Sequence record: NC_047806.1
DNA length: 44,018 nt
Strand: one strand, 5' to 3'
Source: Escherichia phage vB_EcoP_B
Made by a program: the position numbers and the translations under genes. Numbering within the stretch: position 1 is the stretch's first letter; the number at the start of each line of letters is the position of its first letter. This document shows, one piece after another, positions 15,663-44,018 of the stretch. The notes under the pieces were generated by a model. It ran no database searches. It worked only from the letters and a program-made list of their open reading frames with translations, and was not told where the DNA came from.

Positions 15663-15880
15663 TAGTTCACCTTAATAGTTCTGGGTTGGTAAGAGTCAGC
15701 TTTTCTACGCTTAGAGATAAACTTCTTTGCATCCCTTTCGGTGCAGAAGATAGCCTCTGTATCAGTATAGCCAATAGGCATCATACACGTGACCCATATT
15801 AAGCCTAATACTTTACGTTGCACTATGTAGCACTCTTGCCCGTGACTATTTAAACAGGTCTTGATTCTGTATTTAGCCAT
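15662..15880 (-). CDS. hypothetical protein (72 aa)
   Basis: ORF track; ATG 15878-15880; stop overlaps helicase start (TAATG). Confidence 0.45.
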   Translation of the reverse strand: MAKYRIKTCLNSHGQECYIVQRKVLGLIWVTCMMPIGYTDTEAIFCTERDAKKFISKRRKADSYQPRTIKVN

Positions 15881-15883
15881 AAC

Positions 15884-16012
15884 TTAGAACCCCCACGCAG
15901 CGCGTTTAGATGCACGGTCACGGACAGGTTTATTCAGCTTCTTGCCTTTCTTCTGCCCTTCTTCCATGTCAAAACGGTTAGCTTTACGGGTCATCTTCTC
16001 AAAGTTACGCAT
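15884..16012 (-). CDS. gp1.1-like small basic protein (42 aa); not in ORF track (<60 aa)
   Basis: ATG 16010-16012 with GGAG SD just downstream of promoter 16038-16060; translation MRNFEKMTRKANRFDMEEGQKKGKKLNKPVRDRASKRAAWGF resembles T7 gp1.1 (MRNFEKMT..., from memory). Confidence 0.5.
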   Translation of the reverse strand: MRNFEKMTRKANRFDMEEGQKKGKKLNKPVRDRASKRAAWGF

Positions 16013-16037
16013 GGTTAAATCTCCAAAGTGAGTTAAT

Positions 16038-16060
16038 CTTATCTATACTGTCCGGTAAAT
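16038..16060 (-). promoter_or_regulatory. phage RNAP promoter variant (upstream of gp1.1-like ORF)
   Basis: ATTTACCGGACAGTATAGATAAG (C-to-G change in core). Confidence 0.5.
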
Positions 16061-16065
16061 ACGAA

Positions 16066-16081
16066 GTCTCACATGTGAGAC
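16066..16081 (-). other. GTCTCAC..GTGAGAC palindromic hairpin element
   Basis: perfect 16-bp palindrome gtctcacatgtgagac, 5 nt upstream of promoter 16038-16060. Confidence 0.55.
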
Positions 16082-16084
16082 AAC

Positions 16085-16223
16085 CTAGGTCTGCCCTTCC
16101 TCTAAGTGGTAATAAGAGGAAGGAAGAAGGTAATAGGTATTCCTAGATAACCTATATAACCTTTAATACCTATTACTTCCTTTATATCCTTTATCTTCCC
16201 TTTCTTTCCCGTCTCCGACGGCT
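16085..16223. other. AT-rich repeat-containing spacer between tandem phage promoters; candidate primary replication origin
   Basis: non-coding, AT-rich, repeated AGGAAG/TATTACC/AGGTTAT motifs; flanked by promoters 16224-16244 and 16038-16060 (T7 origin sits in the analogous place). Confidence 0.35.
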
Positions 16224-16244
16224 ATCCTATAGTGTCCGGTAAAT
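16224..16244 (-). promoter_or_regulatory. phage RNAP promoter (first after RNAP gene)
   Basis: ATTTACCGGACACTATAGGAT. Confidence 0.6.
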
Positions 16245-16247
16245 AAA

Positions 16248-16263
16248 GTCTCACATGTGAGAC
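16248..16263 (-). other. GTCTCAC..GTGAGAC palindromic hairpin element
   Basis: perfect 16-bp palindrome, 3 nt upstream of promoter 16224-16244. Confidence 0.55.
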
Positions 16264-16298
16264 ACGTTTTATGTTAATGAAATGTTACAGGTAGTAGG

Positions 16299-16327
16299 TA
16301 AAAGAAAGCCACTCCCGAAGGAATGGC
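16299..16327 (-). terminator. intrinsic terminator after RNAP gene (early terminator candidate)
   Basis: RNA GCCAUUCC-UUCG-GGAGUGGC (8-bp stem, UUCG loop) followed by CUUUCUUUU. Confidence 0.55.
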
Positions 16328-16336
16328 CTATTAATA

Positions 16337-18964
16337 TTATGCGAAACAATAGTCTGAAACTAAGATTTCGTTAAGGTCAAACTCCCCTTGCTCTGGTACT
16401 TGGATTCCGGTGTCTACTAACCAACGCTCTTCGTGCACATCTAGCAGGTTTTGCAGGGCATTATGGTTTTGATACATCTTAACCATTTCTTCCCTTAAGC
16501 TATCCCGCAGGTCTGCGGTACGTCCTGCATGAGTACCGAAAGAATCATGGATGACTGCAATGGATGTAATACCTTTATCCACTAGGTCACATACAGTCAG
16601 AATCAGGTGGCTAGCATCGTGACCATGGACGAAGTTAGGAGCAGCCGCACCCATCATTGCCGTTTCATCAACTACATCTGTTTCAATCTGGAGACTCATC
16701 TTGATTTCACCCATCAAGCAAGTGGATACGCGGAGCATATCTGTAGCCATTATCTTTTGTTGCAAGATGAAGCCAGTTGGTAAGGGATATTCTAAGCCTT
16801 CGTTTCTTTTAGCTGCGAAACGTGCAAGCTGACGAATCATTTTCATTGCCACTATAGGAGCTTTAACCACTTCCGAGATAGAAGGCCAGATTAAAGCTGT
16901 CATATAGTTATAAGCTGCGCTAGGTGTCAGGCTGTCTTTACGGTCATTATCAAAAGGGTGTACAGGATTGGCGGTACGCCCTTCCGCAATAGCCCGTTGG
17001 GCCTCTTTTTCTTCTAAATCAACGATATAATCAATCACTGACTCACGGCAGGTTAGACGTGTGCTGCCATAAGGTAGTGTCATTACGGGCTTTTTGGTCA
17101 GGCCGCGAGTGATTCCTATCATATCCCACGCACTAGCCATACTACGCAGTTCCGCACCTGTTAAAGTCACGCTGCCAGAAGTGAAGGTTTCCGCATCCTC
17201 TGCATTCATGTATGCATAATTCTTCTGAATTACTACCTGCGCAACGGCACCATAAATATCTTGAGGAGAGTCAGAGGGCTTAAGGTTTACTGCTTTCGCA
17301 CCTACTGCATCGCGTAGCATAGCACTGTAGTGCTGGATACCAGAACAACTACCATCTTGATGGACTGGGAGGTGCGTCATGAATTGGTCTTGCGTGCCTT
17401 CATCCAGTGCATCCAGATAACGCGCATATTCAAAGCACCATGCAAGGAAGCCGTAAGGGGAGTCGGCATTTACCCATTGAGTGAAGGTCAGCGGATCCGC
17501 TGCAATGTCGCGGCACATGTCTTGAAATTCACCATCCAGCACGTTAGCGGTGCGCACGTCAAAAGTTTTCTTATCCCAACCCCAGTTATTAGCCCCGTTC
17601 ACCAAAAACCACTTAAGCGCCTCAGCGCTATCAAGACGCTGCCCTTCGGTAAAACGGAGCAATGCCTTGCCTAAGTCGTTTGATTGCGGAGAGAGCGTGC
17701 TAGATTGCGCGTAGACGCGGCTGCGGCTGTCCAGAGCATACACGAAGTATATTGCGTCAAATTGGCTGTATTTACGGGCCTGCCCTACCATGCGGACGGT
17801 CGCCGCCGATTTGCTGCCGCGCTTAGTCTCAGCGGTATACAGCTTGGTGCATTCACCTTTCCAGTTGATGAAGGCTTGCCATTGTTCCGGTGTTAACATT
17901 TCTTTCAGTTCACGTCCTCGCAGGTGCTGGAACTCTAACGGCACCGGATTAGCTGGCTTGTTCTCACGGTCGATGAGTGGTTTAAAGGAAGGTACACCAT
18001 AGCCGAGGTCTAGACGTATAACGTCCTCCACAACCTGTAAAACCTCTTTATTAACCTGCCACTTAGTTGCCTGCAAAGCGTTAACAGCCTTATAAACGGC
18101 TGGCATTTGCTTTTTGGTCAGCTTGCGGACGTGCTCACGATTGCCTTTTACCAGACGAATACGGCTTGCTACTTTCTCAGTATGAAACCCACCGTTAAAA
18201 GGTGATACCCAAGGGCGGGGAGGTATAACGCAAGGTGCATAGGCAGGGCTGAGCTGCGCTACATGTTCCTTAAATGCAGTTATCCACTCTCCAACATGTT
18301 CACTGGTCTGTAAATAGTAAACACCATGCTTTCCGCCGTTAGTGCGCAAGGTACGAAGGAAGACAGGTTGACCATTGAAGAATACACTATTCTCCAATAT
18401 TTCGAGCAAGGTCATACCGATTTGCAGCAAGGTGTCTTTAGGCCATGCCTCCCAACGGGAGAAATCCGCGTCACGGTCAGCAACAGATTTCTCAGCTACT
18501 ACCGCTACGTTGTGCGCATGACGATAAGATTTAGTCTTGCTAGCCTTAAGCGACTTCTTCACTTTCTCAAAGTACTTAGCTGCGTGACCTTCCAGCTTGC
18601 TAAAACGTACTTGGTCTTCGATGCGGTCCGCTACATTCATAGCGATGGCTTGTAAGGTAACGTCTGTATTCAGCATGTCCATAACGATTTTCATGGTGAT
18701 ATATGCTGCTACTTCGTTTTCTACGCAGTTAATGAAAGCTAATGCACGCGGTGCGCGGCCTCTTTTACCTTCGTACTCTTCCTTATAAGCCTGAATACCT
18801 TCCGCCATAGGTGCGATTAGTTCGGACAATAAGCGGCGATTCCATGCCGTGTCTGATTCATTACCGGATGCAATCTGGCGTTGTTGGTCCGCTTCAAAGC
18901 GACGGATACCGCCGTTAAACATTTCTTCTTCAAGTTGAAGTTGAATAGCGTGTAGGTCTTGCAT
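16337..18964 (-). CDS. single-subunit DNA-directed RNA polymerase (T7/SP6-like), 875 aa
   Basis: ORF track; [18 protein letters not shown] and C-terminal ...DYCFA match T7 RNAP catalytic and foot motifs; length close to SP6-group RNAP; AGGAG SD. Confidence 0.9.
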
Positions 18965-19027
18965 CTTGTTTACTCCTAGTGAAAGAAACCTTAATAGGTG
19001 ACACCTAAGAAGATGCCACCGATAAGG

Positions 19028-19912
19028 TTACTTAGTCAACTCTTCTACTGCCTCAGAGATTAAGGGCCATGCTTCATGGCCTTCACCGTAGCCTAGCTTA
19101 ACCAGTTCGCGGCGTGCCTTGTTAACTGCTGTTTTCTTCGTTGCCTCCTCAGCGCTTAAACCTAAGCGAGCATAGAAGCAGGAAGATTTGAATTGCGGCA
19201 GCATAGGCGCGGCTGCCTTCTTGCTTTCGCGTGCGCTACTTAAGGAGGCGATGCGGTCATTGGCTGCCTGTAATTGCTCAGTCAGTGCTTTAATTTGTGC
19301 CAGCAGACCAGCAATAGCGGCATTCTCAGTATTAGCCGTGTTATCCAGCGGCGCGGCCTTCGGTGCCTCCGGCTTGCTTTCCTCTCCCCATGGTGCTGAT
19401 TCGTCGGCCTCCTGCTCGCTCGCGGGTGGCACTACCTGCGGCGCTTGCATTTCCTGTGATTCTGCGGCCTCAGTCGCGTTCTCCTGCGGTTTTACTGTCT
19501 CAGCCTTAGATTGTACCGTTTCGGCCTTTATCTCTTTCTTAGGCTCAATCAAGGCGTTTACGGAGTTAGTGTCCAGCTTGCCATCTGCGGCGAGTTCTGC
19601 GGCCTTCTCCATGATTATATTTTCATCAGCGAAAGGAACAAGCGCCAGCATTACACGCATAGCCACACCTTTAAAGCGTTCGTCTCCTTTAAAGACACGG
19701 GCTACACTCATCAGCTTGTAGCATTGTGCCTTCTTGATGCCGAACTCTGATTCTACATAAGCTAAAAAGTCTTTTTGACCTTCGAAATCACCGCGTAATT
19801 CATTCAGACAAGCGCCAACTTTGATGTAAGAAGTGCCGATATTGTCTAAGTGCTGCTTGATTTCAGCGGTTGCAGCTTCACGAACAGACAGGAGGATGTT
19901 TTCAGTAGTCAT
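19028..19912 (-). CDS. early protein of unknown function (about 294 aa) with acidic low-complexity linker
   Basis: ORF track 19028..19921 (GTG start) trimmed to ATG with AAGGTG SD. Confidence 0.55.
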   Translation of the reverse strand: MTTENILLSVREAATAEIKQHLDNIGTSYIKVGACLNELRGDFEGQKDFLAYVESEFGIKKAQCYKLMSVARVFKGDERFKGVAMRVMLALVPFADENIIMEKAAELAADGKLDTNSVNALIEPKKEIKAETVQSKAETVKPQENATEAAESQEMQAPQVVPPASEQEADESAPWGEESKPEAPKAAPLDNTANTENAAIAGLLAQIKALTEQLQAANDRIASLSSARESKKAAAPMLPQFKSSCFYARLGLSAEEATKKTAVNKARRELVKLGYGEGHEAWPLISEAVEELTK

Positions 19913-19976
19913 AATAGTCACCTTATATAGTGGTAAGTAAATATCACATAGCCCACACAGGCAGGCTATAGGCTAG

Positions 19977-20204
19977 TTACTTGATGTAATGCCACGTCTC
20001 TATAAATGCATCCTTACTTAATACGCACTCCATGCCTCCCGGTGTAACATATTCTACTAAGCCACCTCTCACACGAAGGTAATTACCGCCTTCCTTTCTT
20101 AGTTTGCGTTTAGCTTTATCGAATAAAAACTCACGGTAAAGGTGATAGGAGCACCAGCTTAAGCCAATAAGAGCAAATGCCATAATGATGCTATCTAAAT
20201 CCAT
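19977..20204 (-). CDS. early small membrane protein (75 aa)
   Basis: ORF track; N-terminal hydrophobic helix IIMAFALIGLSW; AGGAG SD. Confidence 0.5.
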   Translation of the reverse strand: MDLDSIIMAFALIGLSWCSYHLYREFLFDKAKRKLRKEGGNYLRVRGGLVEYVTPGGMECVLSKDAFIETWHYIK

Positions 20205-20269
20205 AGTCTTAACTCCTAGTAAGTGAAAGTTTAATCAGGCGCTACCGTAGCAACGCCTTGTTAAGCCTT

Positions 20270-20290
20270 CTCTTATAGTGTCAGCTAAAT
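20270..20290 (-). promoter_or_regulatory. phage RNAP promoter-like sequence in early region
   Basis: ATTTAGCTGACACTATAAGAG (SP6-like TGACAC, TATAAG instead of TATAGAAG). Confidence 0.4.
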
Positions 20291-20398
20291 AGTTTGTATG
20301 TAGTACCTAGCACTTCCTCACGAATCTGCGCAAATCGTAAGGAACATTTCAGGGTTACACCGTCTGAGAAGATGAAGTTATATTGCCTTTCCATCTTA

Positions 20399-20728
20399 TT
20401 ATTCCTCTTCTCCGCCTTCATACCAAACTACATCGCTGTCATTTGGTACATCATTATAAAGAGCTTCATAGATGCGAGCTTGTAGAATCTTGGTTACATC
20501 CTTCGTATCAGGAATCAAACCAGCATCTTCAAAATCAACATCAATGCCATCAGCAGCCATCACAGTAAAAATCTCACTGTAATAAACTGGCACCATGCTA
20601 TCTACAACCTCATGCAGTGCATCAGAGTAATCATCATCTTCACGAATCTCATCGTACTTGATGCGCTCGTTGAATGCTTCAACAGTTGCAGCCAGAAGGT
20701 TGTAGTAAGCGTTAGCGTTGCGTTCCAT
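20399..20728 (-). CDS. ocr: Ocr-like antirestriction DNA-mimic protein (gp0.3-like), 109 aa
   Basis: ORF track; block ERIKYDEIREDDDYSDALHEVVDSMVPVYYSEIFTVMAADGIDVDFEDAGLIPDTKDVTKILQARIYEAL closely parallels T7 Ocr as remembered; highly acidic. Confidence 0.7.
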   Translation of the reverse strand: MERNANAYYNLLAATVEAFNERIKYDEIREDDDYSDALHEVVDSMVPVYYSEIFTVMAADGIDVDFEDAGLIPDTKDVTKILQARIYEALYNDVPNDSDVVWYEGGEEE

Positions 20729-20818
20729 GATTTAATCCTCATTAGTTAGGTTACATTATAGGACACTCAAAGAATACCCTAGGTTTAACCTATCCAGACT
20801 AAGAAGCGACTACCCATA

Positions 20819-20864
20819 TTGTTAAAGAGCGTGGCTTGTGCCTTGATAGGCTGGCTAGTGCCAG
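20819..20864 (-). promoter_or_regulatory. early-mRNA processing-site candidate (hairpin + GCTCTTTAACAAT)
   Basis: exact 13-mer shared by three early intergenic sites, each next to an inverted repeat. Confidence 0.4.
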
Positions 20865-20872
20865 CAACTATT

Positions 20873-21037
20873 TTATAAGATACTATTCACAAGTTTATCT
20901 ATTTTAGCATTAATTGCAACCACTTTACTATAAAGTTTATCGTGTTTGCTCTTATCTGTGTTAGCTTGCCAAGCGGCATAAGCAACAGCAAGTTTCTCTT
21001 GCAATGCATCATAGCGTTTACGTTGTGCGTTAGTCAT
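20873..21037 (-). CDS. early small protein (54 aa); not in ORF track
   Basis: ATG 21035-21037 with AAGGTG SD; translation MTNAQRKRYDALQEKLAVAYAAWQ... Confidence 0.4.
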   Translation of the reverse strand: MTNAQRKRYDALQEKLAVAYAAWQANTDKSKHDKLYSKVVAINAKIDKLVNSIL

Positions 21038-21082
21038 GATAGTTCACCTTTGTTAGTAAGCCTATCAAGACACAAACCAGAT

Positions 21083-21119
21083 TGTTAAAGAGCGGGATGT
21101 TTAAAGACGTCGCCGTCTT
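21083..21119 (-). promoter_or_regulatory. early-mRNA processing-site candidate (hairpin + GCTCTTTAACAAT)
   Basis: palindrome AAGACGTCGCCGTCTT adjacent to the 13-mer. Confidence 0.4.
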
Positions 21120-21126
21120 GATGCTT

Positions 21127-21155
21127 AATGTAGCCTTGTATGCCGTGGTTGTCAA
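21127..21155 (-). promoter_or_regulatory. candidate host sigma70 early promoter
   Basis: minus strand TTGACA - 17 nt - TACATT, same architecture as 21822-21850. Confidence 0.45.
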
Positions 21156-21163
21156 TAGTTAAT

Positions 21164-21388
21164 TTAGAGATTTGTCGTGATTACTTCATCGTAATCATAA
21201 TCTTCACTGCCTAGATACTCAGTAATGACTTGGTTGTCATACTCAGATACTAAGGTAACTCGGTGATATTCAGTGTCGTAATCTATCAAATAGTGATACA
21301 CATCAACACCTACGCCAGCTTGCATCATATCATCATGGAAGCGGATAGCTTCACTAGCTGATTCGAAGAAAACCTCATGCTGATACAT
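21164..21388 (-). CDS. early very acidic small protein (74 aa)
   Basis: ORF track; 17 Asp/Glu vs 2 Arg/Lys; strong SD AAGGAGG. Confidence 0.5.
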   Translation of the reverse strand: MYQHEVFFESASEAIRFHDDMMQAGVGVDVYHYLIDYDTEYHRVTLVSEYDNQVITEYLGSEDYDYDEVITTNL

Positions 21389-21530
21389 CCTCTTTAACCT
21401 CCTTTAATGTAGAACGTGCATATCTGTTAGCATCGCCGTAAGCGTTAGGCGTGTATTGCGAGGTTTCATGGCCAGCAAACCACGCATCGACTAAGAGTTG
21501 CTTTAGTTGGTCTTCAGTCAACTGAATCAT
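21375..21530 (-). CDS. early small protein (51 aa); not in ORF track
   Basis: ATG 21528-21530 with AAGGAG SD; overlaps both neighbours. Confidence 0.35.
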   Translation of the reverse strand: MIQLTEDQLKQLLVDAWFAGHETSQYTPNAYGDANRYARSTLKEVKEDVSA

Positions 21531-21699
21531 TACTTAACTCCTTCATCAAGTCACGTTTCTTGTTAACTGTATCGGTCCAACTTTCGTTCAGGAAGCGGTG
21601 ATACAGTGCCAACTCGTCATCTGTAAGTAATTCGTTGTTACGAATCATGTAGCATAACAGAGTGAAGAGAACGGACAGTTCACGGTTATTTAATGTCAT
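21514..21699 (-). CDS. first early protein (about 61 aa)
   Basis: ORF track 21514..21741 trimmed to ATG 21697-21699 with GAGGTG SD. Confidence 0.45.
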   Translation of the reverse strand: MTLNNRELSVLFTLLCYMIRNNELLTDDELALYHRFLNESWTDTVNKKRDLMKELSNDSVD

Positions 21700-21758
21700 A
21701 GTTAACACCTCATTCAATAAGTAATTAACCACGGCATACATAGGTTACACTAAGCAAA

Positions 21759-21808
21759 TTGTTAAAGAGCAAGGCAACATAAGTCACCTACCGTTTGGCT
21801 ATGTTGCC
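21759..21808 (-). promoter_or_regulatory. early-mRNA processing-site candidate (hairpin + GCTCTTTAACAAT)
   Basis: inverted repeat GGCAACAT/ATGTTGCC adjacent to the 13-mer. Confidence 0.4.
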
Positions 21809-21821
21809 TCCCGATGGCTGT

Positions 21822-21850
21822 AATGTACTACTAGCTTTTGCCTGTGTCAA
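21822..21850 (-). promoter_or_regulatory. candidate host sigma70 early promoter
   Basis: minus strand TTGACA - 17 nt - TACATT, upstream of first early gene. Confidence 0.5.
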
Positions 21851-21915
21851 CACTAAGTTTCACTAAGATAGACTATTTATGTGATACATGTCACAACTAC
21901 TAAGACAAACCTAGG

Positions 21916-22085
21916 TTGTCTAACGTGTGAGACTAAGGAAAAAAAAAAAAAAAAAAAAGCAATAGATACAGAGCTAGGATAGGCTAGATTGGCTAGGTAT
22001 TCCAAACGTGAAGGGGAGAAAAAGGAAAAAAAAAAAAAAAAAAAAGCAATAGATACAGAGCTAGGATAGGCTAGATTGGCTAGGT
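21916..22085. repeat. tandem direct repeat (two about 87-bp units) each containing an A20 tract; probable genome-terminus / terminal-repeat junction
   Basis: 62-bp exact repeat GG-A20-GCAATAGATACAGAGCTAGGATAGGCTAGATTGGCTAGGT at 21937-21998 and 22024-22085; lies between last late gene and first early gene. Confidence 0.7.
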
Positions 22086-22185
22086 TTCTGGTGTTCCTCC
22101 TACTGCATCTTATCACTATTACCTACTCTCAGCGGTCTACCGACCGCGACCTAATTGCATCTTATAGCTTTAGCTATGCAATCAC

Positions 22186-22320
22186 TAAGGTCTGGCACTA
22201 AGACTAACTAAGGTACACTACTAAGTTGATACTAAGCTAAGCACTAAGGCTTTAACTAAGGCAACCCACTAAGGCTAACCTAAGCCATCCATCAAGGAAT
22301 AACCTAAGGTACACGTGAGC
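22186..22320. repeat. dense array of CTAAG-containing short repeats (11 copies in 135 bp)
   Basis: cactaagg, cactaaga, aactaagg, ... ; further copies scattered 21845-23060. Confidence 0.7.
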
Positions 22321-22847
22321 GAGTGAACGGAGCGCAAGCGGAGTGAGGAGCAGTGAGTGAAGCGTAGCGAAACGAACAGATAGCCCACACCCTCATGCCC
22401 TGTCAAACGCTCAGGAATGGCCCTAAAACGGCCTGTGTAAGCCCTAAGCGGTTGCACTAAGGCAATCACCTTGTCCAATACTAAGGCGCGCCCTAGCGCT
22501 TCCTAGGTGTTCTCCTTGTGCAGCCACTAAGAGCAGACCTCGGCAAGCTCTAGGCCACCCGTCGAGCTTCCTGCGGCAGCAGGTTGAAGACGGACCAGCC
22601 CAGCCCAATTCCCAAGCCAACCGCAGCGCGGCCCCATATGGGGGAAATCCGGCGAGGGCGAGGGCGAGAGAGCTGACACACGCCTATATCAAAATTTTGA
22701 CTTTGGTTACTTTGTGACCACCTTTGGTCTGCCCTTTTGGTTACACTAAGATTATTCCTGCTAAGTACAGGTACACCAGCAGTGGGCCATAGATACATGC
22801 TGTGCATAAGAGGGCTAACAGTAGGTCTTTCATGTTACCTCATTTGA

Positions 22848-23003
22848 TTACACTAAGTCGAATCCATTGGGTTGCTTCAGGTAAGCCTGTACAGTTCCAC
22901 CAAGAACCTTCTGGCTAGCCAGTGCAGACTCTTCAGTGTCATGTATCTTCCTGAGTACCTTACGTTTGAATGGGCCGACTCCATAAGTATGAATCCAAAT
23001 CAT
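22848..23003 (-). CDS. small ORF (51 aa) downstream of tailspike; tentative
   Basis: ATG 23001-23003 with strong SD AAAGGAGG; stop lies in a TTACACTAAG repeat. Confidence 0.3.
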   Translation of the reverse strand: MIWIHTYGVGPFKRKVLRKIHDTEESALASQKVLGGTVQAYLKQPNGFDLV

Positions 23004-41349: not shown

Positions 41350-41386
41350 ACAAAAAAAGAACCCTACCTACGCAAGGTAGATAGGG
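41350..41386 (-). terminator. intrinsic terminator after capsid gene (T-phi analog)
   Basis: 10-bp stem CCCUAUCUAC/GUAGGUAGGG with 5-nt loop followed by UUCUUUUUUUG; overlaps leader/SD of tail tube A. Confidence 0.6.
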
Positions 41387-43597: not shown

Positions 43598-44018
43598 TAC
43601 GCCTCCTTAAGTTCTTGTTGAATTACACCCGGAATGGCCTTAGCCACACCCTCTTCAAGCATCTGTGCTTGCTGTGCTTGCATCTGCGCTTCCTGTTCTT
43701 GCTCCATCTCTTCAGTCGATTTAAGGAATGGCAGTTCAGCAGAGATTTGACCACGTACCCAATCCATGTAATCAGGCCACTTCACAGCAGCTAGGACAGG
43801 CTCAGGCCATTGCAAAGGCAGTGACATGTACTGAGCGAAGTTTGCCAGCTTATCCAGTTCAGCCATGCGCCCTAATGCTTCAATGCCTGTGATAATCACA
43901 GGGTCAACTAGGTCACTAGTGAATGAATCACCTGCCTCCAGCAGACCCCACATCGCTACTGGCGATTGCATAGTAGTAGCAAAGAGGGAATATACACCGC
44001 CCATGTTCTGCTCAATCT
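43597..44018 (-). CDS. portal protein, C-terminal about 140 codons; partial, 5' part is at the window start
   Basis: ORF track 43597..44004; frame open to window end; GGVYS...TGIEALGRMAELDKL resembles T7 gp8 C-terminal region. Confidence 0.75.
   Translation of the reverse strand, partial: IEQNMGGVYSLFATTMQSPVAMWGLLEAGDSFTSDLVDPVIITGIEALGRMAELDKLANFAQYMSLPLQWPEPVLAAVKWPDYMDWVRGQISAELPFLKSTEEMEQEQEAQMQAQQAQMLEEGVAKAIPGVIQQELKEA

Follow-up and report, generated by a model that had tools for sequence, protein, structure and literature searches.

A tandem repeat with two A20 runs at the centre of the Escherichia phage vB_EcoP_B record very probably stems from the joining of overlapping contig ends

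The genome record of Escherichia phage vB_EcoP_B (NC_047806.1), the full 44,018 nt of which form the window analyzed here, contains a tandem repeat in which each of the two copies carries a run of 20 adenines, and the question raised by this locus is whether such a repeat belongs to the ends of the phage genome, is a real duplication within it, or was produced when the record was assembled. Each copy consists of GG, A20, and GCAATAGATACAGAGCTAGGATAGGCTAGATTGGCTAGGT. The two 62-nt copies are exact, their starts are 87 bp apart, and a 25-nt spacer, ATTCCAAACGTGAAGGGGAGAAAAA, lies between them. When the comparison is begun at AAGG, the identity is 64/64 nt, and it is 97% over 70 nt. The hexamer AACGTG is found upstream of both copies (21921-21926 and 22005-22010), and CTAGGT occurs as a direct repeat at 21911, 21993, and 22080, i.e., on the flanks of the units and between them. 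Apart from the two A20 runs, no homopolymer in the 44,018-bp record reaches 8 nt, the next longest being A7, and with 1.3e-7 A20 runs expected from the base composition of the record (45% G+C), chance is excluded as their source. The region is non-coding and is bordered by the late end of the genome (endosialidase/gene 48) on one side and by the first early gene on the other. A preliminary description made from the sequence alone had drawn attention to the two GG-A20 copies 87 bp apart, to the AACGTG-containing segments preceding them, to how unusual a 20-nt homopolymer present twice is, and to the location between the last late gene and the first early gene, and each of these observations was borne out. 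The elements of the repeat are as follows.

21937 to 21998, plus strand: repeat copy 1, made of GG, A20, and a 40-nt conserved leader segment, Q; an exact repeat that adjoins genuine upstream sequence

21939 to 21958, plus strand: A20 run of copy 1; A3 or A4 in every relative

21999 to 22023, plus strand: orphan spacer or filler ATTCCAAACGTGAAGGGGAGAAAAA, 25 nt, with the record centre (22009/22010) inside it

22024 to 22085, plus strand: repeat copy 2, made of GG, A20, and Q; an exact repeat that adjoins genuine downstream sequence

22026 to 22045, plus strand: A20 run of copy 2; A3 or A4 in every relative

The boundary between copy 1 and the spacer reads GGCTAGGT/ATTCC, and that between the spacer and copy 2 reads AAAAA/GG-A(n). 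The sequence that follows Q on the downstream side, referred to here as segment R, is TTCTGGTG.

To judge from sequence comparison, the record is an assembly, circularly permuted and in reverse orientation, of a K1E-like Vectrevirus (SP6-like, Autographiviridae). All of its long ORFs are on the minus strand, its RNA polymerase gene (16337-18964) shares 99.2% identity with the one in Escherichia phage K1E, and the record as a whole is about 98% identical to those of vB_EcoP_C, D, and R, which have the same unusual orientation, and about 96% identical to K1E. The records originate from Baig et al. 2017 (PMC5582158), where Table S1 gives the accession of phage B as KY295891. The terminase homing endonuclease is absent from B, in agreement with Table S2 of the same paper (PMC5582158).

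The preliminary description had taken the repeat to be the direct terminal repeat (DTR) or a concatemer junction at the genome terminus, so that the virion DNA would end here, and the repeat does lie in the large non-coding stretch that separates late from early genes, as the termini of T7/SP6-like phages do. However, the determined ends of K1E lead to a different place. Positions 1-288 of K1E, which are identical at both K1E ends, align to 22381-22669 of the record on the minus strand, placing the physical left end at 22669, where the minus strand starts with TCTCGCCCTCGCC / TCTCGCCCTCGCCCTCGCCGG. The same end sequence, TCTCGCCCTCGCC, also opens the "redundant repeat" of phage mutPK1A2, and the DTRs reported in the source paper are 250-289 bp long and 92-96% identical to that of K1E (PMC5582158). 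Just upstream of 22669 lies the unique sequence that in K1E precedes the right-hand repeat, which means that the two terminal repeats were merged into a single copy during assembly. For phage B, a size of 44,307 bp was published (PMC5582158), which is 44018 + 289, and the records of C, D, and R are likewise equal to their published sizes minus 288-289 bp.

22381 to 22669, minus strand: true direct terminal repeat, 289 bp, as a single collapsed copy; placed by alignment to both K1E ends and by 44018 + 289 = 44307

Measured from the left end, the A20 repeat lies 585-733 bp into the genome, and 296 bp separate it from the inner boundary of the DTR. The leader in which it sits is non-coding, with an array of CTTAGT motifs on one side and two sigma-70-like early promoter candidates on the other. 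By homology to K1E, it is found neither at the physical ends of the virion DNA nor at both ends of the genome, and it is not conserved as a repeat in relatives, being single in 87 records and in 25 sequences read directly. The identification of the repeat with the terminus does not survive this comparison, and the chance that the virion DNA ends here is vanishingly small.

The leader also contains the following features.

21850 to 21822, minus strand: sigma-70-like early promoter candidate, TTGACA-17-TACATT, from a consensus scan; conserved in relatives

21894 to 21865, minus strand: sigma-70-like early promoter candidate, GTGACA-18-TATCTT, from a consensus scan; conserved in relatives

21914 to 21934, plus strand: imperfect copy of a genome-wide palindromic motif (GGTTGTCTCACATGTGAGACT family) in the native leader, which is conserved as far as SP6

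The promoter candidates (21822..21894) are downstream of the repeat in the direction of the genes, and the count of such sites is not above shuffle expectation. The first early gene after them is a homologue of gp2, which starts at 21699 on the minus strand; B is without the gp1 and gp1.5 genes of K1E (21700-21830 in B versus 700-1060 in K1E), and the roughly 95 bp from promoter to gene differ in sequence from K1E and include a hairpin with a 10-bp stem at 21772-21809. Against an expectation of 0, the record contains 8 copies of the palindromic motif GTCTCACATGTGAGAC, which has GGTT/ACT flanks (7396, 12455/12458, 13636, 16065, 16247, 21914, and 34495). The sites at 16065 and 16247 are just upstream of K1E-type phage promoters (ATTTACCGGACACTATAG...), and that at 21914 abuts the A-run in the opposite orientation; the motif may serve in termination, as a processing hairpin, or as a binding site for a protein. 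The hexamer ACTAAG, which reads CTTAGT on the gene strand, is found 18 times in the 1.16-kb stretch of leader and DTR at 21740-22900 and 35 times genome-wide, always in the same orientation. The CTTAGT array is conserved in K1E, mutPK1A2, and SP6, and is reminiscent of the short repeat arrays near the ends of T7. Just inside the DTR boundary, at 22318-22361, B has about two copies of a 14-nt unit (GGAGCAGTGAGTGA-like), which is expanded to about 4-5 tandem copies in phage K (19180-19240); vB_EcoP_C and mutPK1A2 have lost part of this region.

The comparison with relatives covered roughly 110 sequences, comprising 87 matching phage records and 25 sequences that were read directly, among them K1E, vB_EcoP_C, mutPK1A2, SP6, ACG-C91, AAPEc6, Phi100-A, CC1, PSK8, and T205P4 as well as a dozen ENA, Logan, and NCBI contigs. 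The segment is single, with A3 or A4, in all of them. In those read directly, it reads ...GTTGTCTAACGTGTGAGACTAAGG-A3/4-GCAATAGATACAG...GGCTAGGTTTCTGGTG, in one copy, and is very strongly conserved. Every one of the 87 matching phage records spans the region once, in 119-137 bp, compared with 222-241 bp in the B record. The 87-bp insertion and the change from A3 to A20 in both copies are thus private to B. Exact-protein look-ups with the endosialidase, two start variants of the first early gene, and a 51-aa early protein brought up no contig of phage B; the 74-aa and 51-aa proteins retrieved other phages, all with A3 or A4. No run of at least 9 A followed by the start of Q was found in IMG/VR. 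The "GATTGG" variant of Q carried by B was found elsewhere only in the record of phage K and is absent from JGI metagenome contigs.

According to the source paper, SPAdes contigs were "circularised" by joining their beginning and end through a short string of Ns, after which the reads were re-mapped and the Ns replaced or removed (PMC5582158). The centre of the B record, 22009/22010, falls inside the 25-nt spacer, so that the repeat sits exactly where the contig ends met. The wrap of the record at 44018/1, half a genome away from the join, cuts through the middle of the portal (head-tail connector) gene with the loss of 1 nt, as would be expected for a half-rotation. When the record is circularised, the portal ORF of B is read in pieces of 399 and 154 aa, versus 516 aa in relatives.

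44018, no strand: record wrap point; the record lacks a base (C) that is present in C, D, R, K, and K1E, and the portal gene is frameshifted on circularisation

Four sister records each have a record-specific defect at this same procedural position, their own centre. In R (KY295899), a 26-nt deletion at 22470/22471, the exact centre, splits the gp6 homologue into two annotated CDS, R_31 and R_32, and in K (KY295897) a chimeric join is found at the exact centre, 18887/18888. C (KY295892) has a 9-nt duplication, GAACCCTAC, at 22472-22489 and has lost 10 nt at the record start (ttNNNN..., with NNNN at positions 3-6); this loss shifts the expected join from 22490 to 22480/22481, which is exactly between the two 9-mers. 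In D (KY295893), 100 extra nucleotides occupy 22296-22395, of which 66 nt are a duplication and 34 nt an inverted filler, with an N still left among them, and the record is missing 140 nt at the wrap/record start, where the capsid gene is truncated; this loss puts the expected join at about 22395/22396, the exact end of the insertion. Across the whole genome, C, D, and R are pairwise 99.5-99.995% identical, and indels of more than 2 nt are confined to the centre defects and the wrap losses. The record centre is demonstrably a place where this pipeline introduced errors, and duplication of overlapping ends is among the forms that these errors take.

The 87-bp tandem repeat in B is, in all likelihood, a pair of overlapping contig ends glued together in the middle of the record, and neither a terminal repeat nor a biological duplication. 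That the repeat could also reflect an assembly join had been offered as a fallback in the preliminary description, and it is this suggestion that is strongly supported, with the spacer lying on the record centre and with defects at the centres of all the sister records. We infer the exact mechanics of the join from the observations above. The two halves of a single SPAdes contig would have been swapped, so that the old ends met mid-record. The contig end, ...P-GG-A20-Q, possibly with a short erroneous tip, would have supplied the copy 1 side, and the contig start, (possibly an erroneous tip)-GG-A20-Q-R..., would have supplied the copy 2 side. If the overlap was then kept untrimmed, the product would read P-(GG A20 Q)-spacer-(GG A20 Q)-R, in which 62-64 nt are written twice, and the 25-nt spacer would represent error-laden contig tips and/or the misaligned-read consensus that replaced the "string of Ns". 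The real phage would accordingly be predicted to have one copy of the segment, about 600 bp in from its left end, with the terminal repeat and its CTTAGT array on one side and the early promoters used by the host polymerase on the other.

The spacer itself has no match in the viral contigs of IMG/VR and none in phage GenBank records or complete E. coli genomes, and it has no second site in the record when up to 3 mismatches are allowed. As a result, it does not appear to have come from another phage, from the host, or from a different part of the genome. It is loosely like the true upstream sequence, sharing AACGTG and GAGA..AAGG with an excess of changes toward the homopolymer base, and it may be conjectured that this likeness fits degraded base-calling past a long homopolymer or a misaligned-read consensus over Ns. 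When the spacer was aligned globally to the corresponding 26 nt of the other unit, the score was no better than that of shuffled spacers (p=0.27), and the idea that the spacer is a corrupted copy of the true upstream sequence was for this reason not relied on. Copies that are identical at 64/64 positions, including a mutable A20 run, beside a 25-mer without a match form the pattern of a concatenation and are unlike the divergence that follows a natural duplication.

Nevertheless, the central position alone does not discriminate between a join and a real repeat, as a real 64-nt repeat would also break the assembly, and an honest filling of the Ns would give the same layout. The 87-bp duplication could then be real in B, having arisen by slipped-strand mispairing or unequal crossover between the CTAGGT repeats, with the Ns filled by the true spacer. 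Short direct repeats of the kind expected from slippage are indeed present at the unit boundaries, where CTAGGT flanks and separates the units, a genuine repeat would account for the contig ending at this point, and the Ns were, per the published procedure, replaced by read-supported bases (PMC5582158). Yet none of the roughly 110 relatives has such a duplication, in a segment whose conservation extends to SP6, and 2x250 reads should resolve an 87-bp repeat without a break in the assembly. Full-length copies with roughly uniform divergence are also not what is found, as perfect identity through the A20 run stands against a spacer that is statistically unrelated to its counterpart. Finally, with four of four sister joins demonstrably faulty at this same step of the procedure, an error-free join in B is unlikely a priori. 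We consider a real duplication improbable. Some points do count against a join of contig ends or are left unexplained by it: the overlap of 62-64 nt (87 nt when the garbled tips are counted) is no standard SPAdes k-mer size, and the A20 run has no explanation in the join if the phage truly has A3 or A4.

The status of the A-run is a separate matter from that of the duplication. The A20 run is inside the part common to both contig ends and so comes from the read-derived sequence of the assembler, which leaves at most one run in the phage. What we infer, with slightly better than even confidence, is that phage B has one real long A/T homopolymer at this position, of uncertain length, which broke the assembly graph. 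The contrary case, to which we give somewhat less than an even chance, is that the A20 run is an artefact as well, and that B has A3 or A4 with the run having arisen during assembly or editing, e.g., from an erroneous contig tip or a hand-filled gap. Several observations agree with an artefact: the run is A3 or A4 in every relative, both runs fall in a join zone that is demonstrably corrupted, a "short string of Ns" was indeed put in by the authors (PMC5582158), a length of exactly 20 is suspiciously round, and no other homopolymer in the genome exceeds 7 nt. However, each run is located inside its copy, with native sequence on both sides (GG and GCAATAG), and not at the junction of the contig ends into which the Ns went, the sister joins show no conversion of N to A, and the assembler would need reads that contain A20.

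Phage K also bears on this point. K is 99-100% identical to B over 22047-22630 and was assembled independently, and its contig begins at the equivalent of B 22047, 1 nt after the G that follows the A-run. A break 1 nt from the A-run site of B suggests a real read-level obstacle in both libraries, as the coincidence is otherwise hard to explain. The contig of C likewise broke beside a homopolymer, in this case a genuine A13. Homopolymers also expand naturally in this clade, as seen after the capsid gene at 41352-41358 (a terminator-like T-run on the gene strand), where the run is A5 in K1E and K, A7 in B, A11 in R, and A13 in C and D. At the A20 site itself, close relatives show no variation in length beyond A3 and A4. 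As a tentative extension of a real homopolymer, which we hold to be possible but rather doubtful, B, and probably K as well, may carry, in an otherwise invariant early leader, a single dA:dT tract of about 20 nt that is fragile or slippage-prone, that stalls sequencing and assembly, and that is within 1 nt of one breakpoint of the early-region loss and left-end inversion in the K record. If true, this would point to a hotspot of rearrangement associated with a homopolymer, located just upstream of the promoters for the host polymerase in an SP6-like phage. In gene orientation, the A-run, if real, precedes the -35 element of the first promoter-like site by roughly 45-65 bp. This distance is too great for a classical UP element, so that the A-run, if real, is most likely neutral.

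A number of other origins and roles for the A20 run were considered and set aside. These include a retrotransposition-like insertion (poly-A with a target duplication), a diversity-generating retroelement, and poly-dA products of a defence reverse transcriptase, as well as oligo-dT or adapter remnants and the conversion of an N20 joiner to A20. The exotic origins were rejected because the run occupies the native A3/A4 position with native flanks, because the phage is without a reverse transcriptase, and because the sister joins are without N-to-A changes. A role for the T20 of the gene strand as an intrinsic terminator was also dropped, no G+C-rich hairpin having been found to precede the T20 in the scan.

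The record of phage K (KY295897) differs from the others in further ways. It is without the whole early region (the equivalent of B 15856-22046), RNA polymerase included, a loss of 6.2 kb with one of its breakpoints 1 nt away from where B has the A-run. It carries the left-end segment (B 22047-22630) in inverted form between gene 48 and the helicase region (K 18827-19513), and its central join includes a 61-nt foldback piece. The missing polymerase of K was interpreted biologically in the source paper (PMC5582158). It seems unlikely that an SP6-like phage could be viable if it had no polymerase and carried its terminal repeat in inverted form, and the loss of the early region together with the inversion is therefore probably a misassembly or the result of a discarded contig.

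Taken as a whole, the tandem repeat with its two A20 runs is very probably no real feature of the phage, and its value is mainly one of curation. KY295891 would contain an 87-bp false duplication in addition to the missing wrap base that frameshifts the portal gene on circularisation, and KY295892, KY295893, KY295897, and KY295899 have comparable join defects, with a gene split in R and the RNA polymerase region absent in K. Terminus prediction, repeat mining, pangenomes, and model training would all inherit the errors of these five GenBank records. A single A-run, if real, would be a modest curiosity, namely an unusually long homopolymer in a conserved phage leader.

Among known systems, the closest likeness is to naively circularised contigs from de Bruijn graphs, which have the same sequence at both ends and in which an untrimmed join yields a tandem duplication at that join. 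The duplication in B has this form, it is missing in relatives, and the sibling assemblies have join defects, as is the case with such contigs; it differs from them in that the overlap is not a clean k-mer length, a 25-nt junk spacer separates the copies, and an A20 run lies inside the overlap. The DTRs of SP6/K1E-like phages (Vectrevirus/Zindervirus; 288 bp in K1E) resemble the repeat in B in that they, too, are direct repeats located in non-coding DNA where the late genes give way to the early genes of a T7-supergroup phage. In contrast to these DTRs, the A20 repeat of B is arranged in tandem, not at opposite ends of the genome, and is single-copy in all relatives. Lastly, the A20 run, if real, would be a slippage-expanded intergenic A/T homopolymer comparable to slippage-prone tracts such as the post-capsid terminator T-run of the same clade. 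Unlike that tract, the A20 site has no intermediate lengths among relatives, and the jump to 20 is far above the documented variation.
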